Source: Nitrospirota bacterium
GTDB taxonomy: Bacteria; Nitrospirota; Thermodesulfovibrionia; Thermodesulfovibrionales; Dissulfurispiraceae
NCBI GenBank assembly: GCA_040758355.1
Contig: JBFLWF010000005.1
Coordinates: 32,001 to 96,000, forward strand
Reading direction: 5' to 3'
Length of the DNA stretch: 64,000 bases
Positions 2,394 to 53,887 of this stretch are shown piece by piece; positions within the stretch are counted from its first letter, which is position 1; each line of letters begins with the position of its first letter. The notes below the pieces were generated by a model. It worked only from the letters and a program-made list of their open reading frames with translations, ran no database searches and had not been told where the DNA came from. The translations under genes were made by a program, and so were the position numbers.

Positions 2394-3138
2394 GGAATTA
2401 ACCAAGCACTTCGGCGGAATAAGGGCAGTTGAGGATGCGAGTTTTAAGGTAAAGGGAGGAGACATAGTCAGCATCATAGGCCCCAATGGCGCAGGAAAGA
2501 CCACCCTTTTCAACTGTCTTACCGGAATAACAAAGCCTACAAAAGGACACATATATTTTATGGACAATGAAATCTCAAAGCTCCCTGCCCATAAAGTCTC
2601 AGAGATCGGCATTTCACGGACATTCCAGAATATAAGGTTGTTTTCAGAAATGACCGTAATGGAGAATGTTATGGTCTCTCAGCATGCCAGAACGAAATAC
2701 GGCTTTTTGAGCGCAGTATTGCAGGGAACCAATTTCAGGAAAAAAGAGCAGATAATAAGGGAAAAGGCATTTGAATATTTAGAGCTTGTCGGGCTTGAAA
2801 ATTATGTAGATAATATGGCAAGTAATCTCCCCTACGGAAGCCAGAGAAGGCTTGAGATCGCAAGGGCTTTGGCAACCGAGGCAAAGATAATTCTTCTGGA
2901 TGAACCCACGGCCGGCATGAACCCAATGGAGACCTCGGAAGTTATGTCATTAATAAAAAAGATTCAGGAACTTGGAAAGACCATAATCCTCATAGAACAT
3001 GATATGCGGCTCGTGATGGGCATATCCGACTGGGTGATTGTGTTAGACCACGGGGTCAAGATTGCAGAAGGACTGCCAGAAAATGTAAAAAACGACCCGC
3101 TGGTAATAGAGGCGTATCTCGGAAGGGAGGTACATTAA
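2374..3138 (+). CDS. livG: Branched-chain amino acid ABC transporter ATPase
   Basis: GPNGAGKTT, RTFQNIRLF, LPYGSQRRLEIARAL, VIEAYLG. Confidence 0.95.
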   Translation: MYILEVRELTKHFGGIRAVEDASFKVKGGDIVSIIGPNGAGKTTLFNCLTGITKPTKGHIYFMDNEISKLPAHKVSEIGISRTFQNIRLFSEMTVMENVMVSQHARTKYGFLSAVLQGTNFRKKEQIIREKAFEYLELVGLENYVDNMASNLPYGSQRRLEIARALATEAKIILLDEPTAGMNPMETSEVMSLIKKIQELGKTIILIEHDMRLVMGISDWVIVLDHGVKIAEGLPENVKNDPLVIEAYLGREVH

Positions 3139-3230
3139 GTGATTTTATATGTCAGGCACTGCTCAAAGACTCCCTCTTTTCGCAGCACCTGACATATATA
3201 TTTAGATTAAAATTGCACAATTTAGGTTAA
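3133..3230 (+). mobile_element. Internally deleted (ends-only) copy of the ~210-bp inverted-repeat element
   Basis: GATTTTATATGTCAGGCACTGCTCAAAGACT joined directly to TCTTTTCGCAGCACCTGACATATA...AATTGCACAATTTAGGTTA; matches both ends of the copy at 53666-53887 in reverse complement. Confidence 0.8.
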
Positions 3231-3234
3231 GATT

Positions 3235-12411: not shown

Positions 12412-12415
12412 AATT

Positions 12416-12630
12416 AAATTAAACGATTTTAATTTCAGCGATATATGTCAGACGCGGATCAAAGACTTTAAACTCCGCACTTGTAAAGACATTTACTTTG
12501 CATCCGTCATCTACTACATTGGATACTTGTTGGGTGATGCAATTATAATCCTTTGTTATACACATGAAATACGACTTTTTAAAAGGCTTTGAGCCGTGCC
12601 TGACATATAGCAGAATCGCTCAGCTTAGCT
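12416..12630 (-). mobile_element. ~210-bp inverted-repeat element, copy A
   Basis: TATATGTCAG...AAAGACTTTAAA...TTTAAA.GGCTTTGAGCCGTGCCTGACATATA; colinear with copies B, C and D. Confidence 0.85.
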
Positions 12631-20220: not shown

Positions 20221-20236
20221 ATAAAAGCTTTATCTA

Positions 20237-20441
20237 AATTCTAATTTAGAAAATATATGTCAGGTACGGCGAAAAGACTTTAAACTCCGCACTTGTATTA
20301 ACATCTCTCCTGTATCCGTAATCTACAACATTGAATACTTGTTGGATAATGCAATTATAATCTTTTATAATACACTTGAACTAACACTTTTTAAAGTCTT
20401 CGAGCCGTGCCTGACATATATAATAACCGCTCAATTTAGCC
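20237..20441 (-). mobile_element. ~200-bp inverted-repeat element, copy B
   Basis: TATATGTCAGGTACGGCGAAAAGACTTTAAA...TTTAAAGTCTTCGAGCCGTGCCTGACATATA...GCTCAATTTAGCC. Confidence 0.88.
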
Positions 20442-52640: not shown

Positions 52641-52670
52641 TAATTACCCCCATTGCAGAGTCAGGATTAT

Positions 52671-52705
52671 AGAATACAAGATGCAGGATACAAGATACAA
52701 GGTAT
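52671..52705. repeat. 7-bp tandem array abutting element copy C
   Basis: agaatac aagatgc aggatac aagatac aaggtat. Confidence 0.75.
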
Positions 52706-53657: not shown

Positions 53658-53665
53658 TGATTAAT

Positions 53666-53887
53666 TATAACCAAATTGAGCAATTCTGATTTAGAAAATA
53701 TATGTCAGGTGCGGCGAAAAGACTTTAAACCCCGCACTTGTATTAACATTTATCTTGTATCCGTCATTTACAACATCGGATACTTGTTGGGTGATGCACT
53801 TATAATCTCCTGTAATACACTTGAAATAGCACTTTTTAAAGTCTTTGAGCCGTGCCTGACATATAAAATCGCTCAATTCAGGCTATA
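53666..53887 (-). mobile_element. 222-bp inverted-repeat element, copy D (most intact)
   Basis: Outer IR TATAACCAAATTGAGC / GCTCAATTCAGGCTATA; inner IR TATATGTCAGG...AAAGACTTTAAA / TTTAAAGTCTTT...CCTGACATATA. Confidence 0.9.

Follow-up and report, generated by a model that had tools for sequence, protein, structure and literature searches.

Five copies of a nested inverted repeat of about 210 bp lie in the 64,000-nucleotide stretch of Nitrospirota DNA analysed here (the window), occupying spacers within the liv, valS, mla and flagellar operons, and all five read alike in their operons. An earlier note on this DNA, which described the copies and paired changes in their stems, left two origins side by side: a non-autonomous mobile element, or a dispersed RNA under selection to fold in mRNA. 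What placed these copies, and what oriented them? Following the repeat through the 2.77-Mb genome that contains the window (G000), its four congeners (G001–G004) and further relatives, we describe a MITE family of IS1380 type that is real and apparently undescribed. The repeat is a MITE that carries the 16-bp ends and the 5-bp TNNNA target duplication of one IS1380 group. It was likely spread in trans by the transposase of that group, and its orientation bias is probably due to the disappearance of copies in the more harmful orientation.

The five copies align, with bounds slightly shifted from those first drawn (Table 1), and belong to a family far commoner than five: a whole-genome nhmmer search of G000 returned 76 repeat loci, a family of about 70 copies that makes up 0.5% of the genome. 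Forty are full subfamily-1 copies of ~212 bp each (range 210–220 bp), ~14 are mini copies of 76–100 bp and 16 are long subfamily-2 copies with other ends, fragments making up the remainder. The repeat is short, non-coding and multi-copy, with a 16-bp terminal inverted repeat (TIR). By BLAST it is present in 8 of 31 genomes, every one in the same bacterial family and all four congeners among them, and its central motif turns up in 8 genomes among 301 from the phylum, 7 of those 8 in the same bacterial family; viral contigs gave no exact match to one core pattern. An Rfam search of the 64-kb window, one of the checks proposed earlier, produced no match above the gathering threshold (best E value 1.4, around copies C and D), and a scan around the same two copies found two promoter-like sites, against 3.0 expected, and no terminators.

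Table 1. Repeat copies in the window and the parts of copy D
Feature	Position	Strand	Remarks
Copy D, full element, 213 bp	53670..53882	- (mRNA strand)	Alignment; empty in G002; flhG/minD-like gene upstream, fliA downstream
Target duplication of D, left, 5 bp	53665..53669	.	TTATA; single TTATA at the empty G002 site
Target duplication of D, right	53883..53887	.	CTATA, one change from left
TIR of D	53670..53685	+	13/16 to consensus CCTAARTTGAGCGATT; similar to the IS right-end type (A at position 6)
Other TIR of D	53867..53882	-	14/16 to consensus
Inner 31-bp stem of D, left arm	53699..53729	+	TG and GA dinucleotides
Inner 31-bp stem of D, right arm	53835..53865	+	
Central 26-nt motif	53753..53778	+	Sequence kept across subfamilies; weak apical stem in subfamily 1 only
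Copy C	52712 to ~52914	-	Downstream of fliA; right terminal repeat lost
Copy B	20233..20440	-	Upstream of mlaE; left terminal repeat damaged
Copy A	12413..12629	-	Includes stop codon of upstream response-regulator gene; ends 2 nt before valS start
Mini copy	3140..3226	+	Between livG and livF; lacks the interior and the outer part of one terminal repeat

The conserved sequence ends on either side in an inverted repeat of 16 bp with the consensus CCTAARTTGAGCGATT. At the 33 of 76 loci in which both ends match at least 12 of the 16 positions, exact 5-bp duplications flank 7, against 0.69 expected from shuffled pairings, and the mean identity of the 5-bp flanks is 0.61, against 0.42 expected; lengths of 2–4 and 6–10 bp are not enriched at these 33 loci. 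The target pattern, TNNNA, is symmetric, with T at −5 in 27 of the 33. The TA read earlier at both ends of copy D gives way to a 5-bp duplication, TTATA/CTATA, and TA duplication is not enriched across the family, 2-bp matches occurring at 2 of 33 loci where 3.5 are expected. Because 5 bp are duplicated and TA is not enriched, the repeat is not of the TA-targeting Correia/ERIC/RUP kind; what stands of that earlier proposal is a non-autonomous element, here an IS1380-type MITE with 5-bp duplications and empty sites.

Empty orthologous sites at D and at C1:129205 differ from their filled counterparts by the element plus 5 bp, the length difference of 218 bp between G000 and G002 at D being 213 + 5. 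The mini copy, flanked by TTAAG at 3135-3139 and 3227-3231, occupies a site that is empty in G001, G002 and G003. Copies A and B are common to G000 and G002, with a remnant of A in G003 and B absent in G001, and the spacer of copy C holds a subfamily-2 element in G002 and none in G001 and G003; the X1 contigs, from a relative ~90% alike, have deletions inside sites C and D and not clean empty sites. Over the 0.8 Mb of G002 covered by the spacer comparison, 479 orthologous G000/G002 spacers divide into 444 with a copy in neither genome, 15 filled in G000 only, 13 in G002 only and 7 in both.

Other features of these spacers deserve record. In G003 a 5.3-kb insertion (C1:1338265-1343549) lies near the site of copy B. 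Short 7-base arrays are found in spacers at G001 C41:35332-35431, window 52660-52700 and L012:2470-2590, the G001 pair being inverted and at the place of copy A. A second, unrelated nested-palindrome repeat of ~230–290 bp with ATCCAGCGATAAGGAT-like ends (G000 C1:115590-115880; ~24 loci, also C3:118687, C8:13912, C12:9256 and C18:45625) often occupies a G000 spacer whose G002 counterpart has the MITE. Within or beside the G004 MITE copies (L012:2257-2311, L148, L149) there is a ~25-bp palindrome (CCTGTCTGCGTGCAACGCACAGGC-like), which sits at the CAGG/CCTG stem and was not found in G000.

The genus also contains a candidate partner for these ends. Locus L012 of G004 encodes an IS1380 transposase, a match to NF033539 at 207.5 bits (cut-off 180), with a left end that is the MITE repeat at 15/16 positions and a right end beyond the contig edge; loci L011 and L013 score 207.7 and 243.2 bits against the same cut-off. 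We examined the ends of 22 relatives of L012 and six loci from the order, and 12 related IS1380 loci carry a MITE-type repeat at both ends (13–16/16), with an end-to-end spacing of 1716–1914 bp and, in one, 1352 bp. Where the flanks are readable, TNNNA stands on both sides in 9/9 and exact duplications are present in 3/9. Members of the IS1380 family have CC ends and duplicate 4–5 bp, as the partner elements do. Excerpts of PMC3281130 give 16/13-bp inverted repeats and a 5-bp direct repeat for IS1247, an IS1380 member, and those of PMC9330008 describe members that misread their ends and carry neighbouring DNA. One IS end in G088, of the same order, equals an end in a Nitrospirota record.

Autonomous elements with the identical end type thus exist, none of them in G000: no IS1380 transposase was found there by HMM and tblastn searches, and PF13701, which has matches in 2 of the 5 genomes of the genus, has none in G000, G001 or G002. 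Mobilisation in trans is accordingly inferred, and spread within G000–G002 would need a partner that is lost, unassembled or visiting. The MITE interior has no match among the IS interiors, so the MITE is not a simple deletion derivative. A longer version with an ORF between the same ends, which the earlier note had proposed to look for, was not found in G000, where single-end matches outside the known loci proved to be half-elements, chance sites and one diverged copy of 229 bp. Further DDE transposase loci (PF01609) were rejected as partners, their ends being different. Separately, locus L182 (G036:C2:54009-56884) contains two IS1380 transposase matches in tandem.

Orientation relative to genes, called with a simple in-house caller, could be classed for 70 of the 76 loci in G000 (the six dropped were four of low score and two composite): 49 are co-oriented with transcription, 7 anti, 8 divergent, 3 convergent and 3 at a contig edge (co:anti p 7e-9). 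Co-orientation, complete in the window, therefore holds genome-wide in 49/56. Ratios of co to anti are 9:1 in G001, 21:1 in G002, 14:1 in G003 and 16:2 among 29 metagenome loci, counts that are non-independent across genomes in that copies are shared; the three matches examined in G004 are two anti, pieces of one interrupted copy, and one divergent. The upstream stop codon falls within the duplication or the element in 13/26.

Such a bias might be set at insertion, the same IS1380-type MITE entering with the transposase placing its left end towards the upstream gene or following the geometry of transcription or replication, with RNA effects minor; we judge this possible, though unlikely. Position 6 of the ends leaves room for it, as it is G in 19/33 mRNA-5′ and A in 25/33 mRNA-3′ ends of the MITE, mirroring the IS (right ends A in 12/12, left ends G in 9/17), so that the mRNA direction of the MITE is the left-to-right direction of the IS; the target pattern, against this, is symmetric. 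The bias is equally strong in single-genome copies as in shared ones (not counted separately), yet seven anti copies exist, and one spacer carries opposite orientations in G000 and G002. Replication alone is insufficient. Co-oriented copies lie on the inferred leading strand in 36/49, and sampled genes in 362/548 (66%); where gene direction runs against that strand, 13 copies follow the gene and 4 show the reverse (5 versus 3 at a stricter skew cut-off), and the inferred leading strand does not explain orientation better than gene direction.

On the reading we prefer, an IS1380-type MITE whose more harmful orientation is lost after insertion, an IS1380 transposase that is not in the G000 assembly would mobilise the passenger element in trans, and insertions would persist chiefly in AT-rich spacers, either at a stop codon or just past it. 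In the common orientation the predicted mRNA hairpin would be broken by two 2×2 internal loops and present a C-poor loop; the rare orientation would instead offer a longer helix and a U-rich loop with more C than G (C 23%, G 12%, U 36%), on which RNase III, RNase E or Rho could act. The genome encodes both RNase III and Rho. Copies in the harmful orientation would be lost through this putative filter. For comparison, excerpts of PMC2229807 (section 10), PMC3049150 and PMC10969869 describe an orientation-dependent effect of ERIC on mRNA and the cutting of Correia by RNase III.

A different explanation of orientation, which we consider improbable, is that fixed copies are cis-regulatory mRNA hairpins, processing or stabilising sites in operons, kept by host selection. 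The pairing of the inner stem speaks for it. Pair counts used 110 of 118 long sequences, 8 inherited or duplicate copies being dropped, and stem counts used 93 copies of subfamily 1, drawn from four genomes and from relatives; in these 93, the inner 31-bp stem is Watson–Crick in 2299 of 2505 cells, compared with 862 of 1366 in the terminal repeats. Parsimony, on a tree built from non-stem columns and distorted by conversion, counts 119 Watson–Crick-to-Watson–Crick jumps against 2–12 in slid registers, with 10 mismatch-to-pair steps, and on the strength of 119 versus 2–12 the covariation of the inner stem is real. The compensatory changes first seen in the window are likewise genuine, both TATAT/ATATA to TATGT/ACATA and GCGGC/GCCGT to GCTGC/GCAGT, the latter pair of states splitting the family 38:46 of 93. 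Two other stems described there need narrowing: TGTATTA/TAATACA exists but is a minority variant in the family, and the apical GTATCC/GGATAC stem, itself weak, is confined to subfamily 1, three of its six pairs being disrupted in subfamily 2.

The strand that pairs best is nevertheless the wrong one for an mRNA hairpin. The tandem UG/GU and GA/AG mismatches, both conserved, can form pairs on the non-mRNA strand alone; in copy D these tandem G-U and G-A pairs are formed, on the + strand, by the TG and GA dinucleotides of the left arm (Table 1). Tandem G-A is kept, per pair, in 86/92 and 75/93 copies and tandem G-U in 75/93 and 81/93, and both persist while the sequence of the outer stem turns over. 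Tandem G-U and G-A pairs stabilise stems. In 90/93 and 14/17 copies the non-mRNA strand has the stronger inner stem, the longest helix reaching a median of 17 bp there versus 12 bp on the mRNA strand, and whole copies are more stable as the mRNA strand in only 35/93; copy D folds much more stably than its shuffles on either strand (z −7.9 and −7.4). Wobble events in the inner stem number 51 on the mRNA strand versus 43 on the opposite one, while unpaired sites already have a mutation bias of that direction, with 7.3 C>U and 4.8 G>A events per site on the mRNA strand. A small mRNA-strand excess does appear in the apical stem (29:17, p 0.10) and the terminal repeats (122:92, p 0.047), and the sense-only G-U pairs noticed earlier are borne out for the apical variants of copies A and B, though not family-wide. 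Covariation is thus present and wobble favouring the transcribed strand is not; given the non-canonical pairs and the stronger stem on the other strand and no inner wobble excess, selection for an mRNA fold, as the earlier note had proposed, is not supported.

The history of individual copies bears on the same hairpin. Six inherited copies, chosen by similarity, differ between G000 and G002 at 38 of 1212 bases (3.1%), where nearby synonymous sites differ by 16–32% and 62 element-free spacers by a median of 5.6%; this slow divergence hints at constraint, against a purely neutral view, and excerpts of PMC2229807 (section 10) and PMC10969869 report that ERIC and Correia change mRNA stability. Set against host-selected hairpins is a fast positional turnover: of 35 spacers with a copy, 28 have it in just one of G000 and G002, and among the 7 occupied in each of them, 3 contain different variants. 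Full and mini forms also share one site in close relatives, in two cases.

How, then, might the stems covary in a MITE that has lost its more harmful orientation? Most of the paired changes may stem from events in DNA, namely the copying of one arm from the other (template switching) and conversion between copies, and not from selection acting on individual mRNAs. The 119 pair-to-pair jumps, against only 10 mismatch-to-pair steps, count for this reading, as do two-base changes, in copy A and in L104 versus G000 C8, by which one arm becomes exactly complementary to its partner. Such changes are what template switching within an inverted repeat would give (PMC8604942, PMC7202029), a process described in PMC8604942 as homogenising the arms; orthologous copies also show conversion tracts. 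Arm copying should, on the other hand, erase the tandem G-A and G-U mismatches, yet these are persistent in 72/93 and 69/93. On balance, arm-to-arm DNA conversion with loss of the RNase III- or Rho-prone orientation appears likelier than mRNA-fold selection.

The last alternative turns on the ends. One core of 167 bp is found between four end types, A to D, of which B and C constitute subfamily 2; types A, B and C measure 211–218 bp where both ends survive, and type D comprises two full 245-bp copies in G003 without duplication. Type B ends match the better end of IS1380 L011 at 13/15, with three degenerate positions in the consensus pattern, and type D ends match IS1380 L013 at up to 16/18, the transposases of L011, L012 and L013 being 22–33% identical; type C ends have no partner among the 30 IS1380 loci examined of at least 46 matches. 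Multiple end types may mean that a selected core switched ends, or that one old family drifted. The core could accordingly be imagined as the functional unit, an ssDNA hairpin or antisense RNA on the non-mRNA strand that aids mobilisation or re-targeting and whose IS1380 ends changed several times, an idea that we find rather doubtful. The tandem pairs kept through outer-stem turnover, the resemblance of B and D ends to those of such dissimilar elements and a pair of nested insertions that used the TTTA(A) of the stem itself all favour it. DDE transposases, however, act on double-stranded ends, so that a hairpin is unneeded; the common length of types A to C fits one old family with drifted ends, type C is partnerless and type D rests on its two copies, and RAYT genes are not flanked by the core. 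We give as little credence to its fuller form, in which the core would be a parasite module of long standing, folding on the non-mRNA strand with rRNA-style tandem G-A/G-U pairs and a fixed 26-nt loop motif, surviving loss of its helper IS through the ends of other IS1380 transposases and re-inserting into its own older copies.

A RAYT/REPIN link is rejected, the 10 Y1_Tnp loci scanned being without a flanking repeat pattern and having nearby only one ordinary repeat copy two genes off and a weak end of 40 bp. In G000, the RAYT-like Y1 transposase genes L173 (C21:13013-13318, broken by stops) and L177 (C10:9258-9584) are each bounded by a short GGGACA...TGTCCC-type inverted repeat. Other side observations concern type-A ends: a 59-bp element that consists of two of them alone (L039:3038-3096) is the right end of an IS copy in a Scalindua record, and type-A ends with stem motifs surround a far more diverged interior at G000 C6:41026-41255 and G001 L117 and L119, variants that define the conserved part of the core.

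An IS1380-type MITE filtered by orientation, the account that we favour, would matter in two ways. It is an abundant MITE family tied to IS1380, a family known to move resistance genes. It is also a warning case, because strong covariation and a shared direction with transcription, which commonly mark a structured RNA, can arise from DNA arm copying and insertion filtering. If the end-switching reading were true, the family would further show how a non-autonomous element may persist once its transposase is gone. The MITE reviews PMC10969869, PMC2229807 and PMC3184786 make no mention of IS1380 in their main text, nor does a MITE census of 183,232 genomes (PMC11602168), whose supplement may list such elements; no IS1380 MITE was found in the literature searched, which included excerpts of PMC11578231, PMC9330008, PMC10813416, PMC3281130 and PMC3542288.

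Known systems resemble the present family in different respects. IS1380 elements (IS1247, ISPme1, ISEcp1) share with it CC...GG ends of ~16 bp and a 5-bp duplication (for IS1247, excerpts of PMC3281130), and the ends of one IS1380 group found in the present analysis are identical to those of the MITE; unlike them, it is without transposase, 212 bp long as against ~1.7 kb, unrelated in its interior and present in tens of chromosomal copies. ERIC/IRU, Correia and RUP are also short MITEs inside operons with long stem-loops, ERIC having orientation-dependent mRNA effects, Correia being cleaved by RNase III, and RUP, BOX and SPRITE inserting into one another; RUP and Correia, however, duplicate TA, and RUP is tied to IS630, whereas the present MITE has a 5-bp duplication and goes with IS1380. 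In excerpts of PMC11578231, MITEPye1 of Paracoccus yeei is likewise placed in an IS family on the evidence of its ends; it is intergenic and folds into a long stem-loop, but it belongs with IS1182 and has 1–3 copies per chromosome. By analogy, the closest phenomenon appears to be bcr1 of the Bacillus cereus group. In excerpts of PMC3184786 and PMC6199540, bcr1 is shown to be transcribed, whereas the present MITE is known from sequence alone, and no transposase is named for it there, whereas the present MITE has an IS with matching ends. As described in the same excerpts (section 8 of PMC3184786 for its size and repeats), bcr1 is an element of ~155 bp with 5-bp direct repeats (TTTAT), and, like the MITE, it occupies positions unconserved between strains and shows compensatory changes in a long stem.
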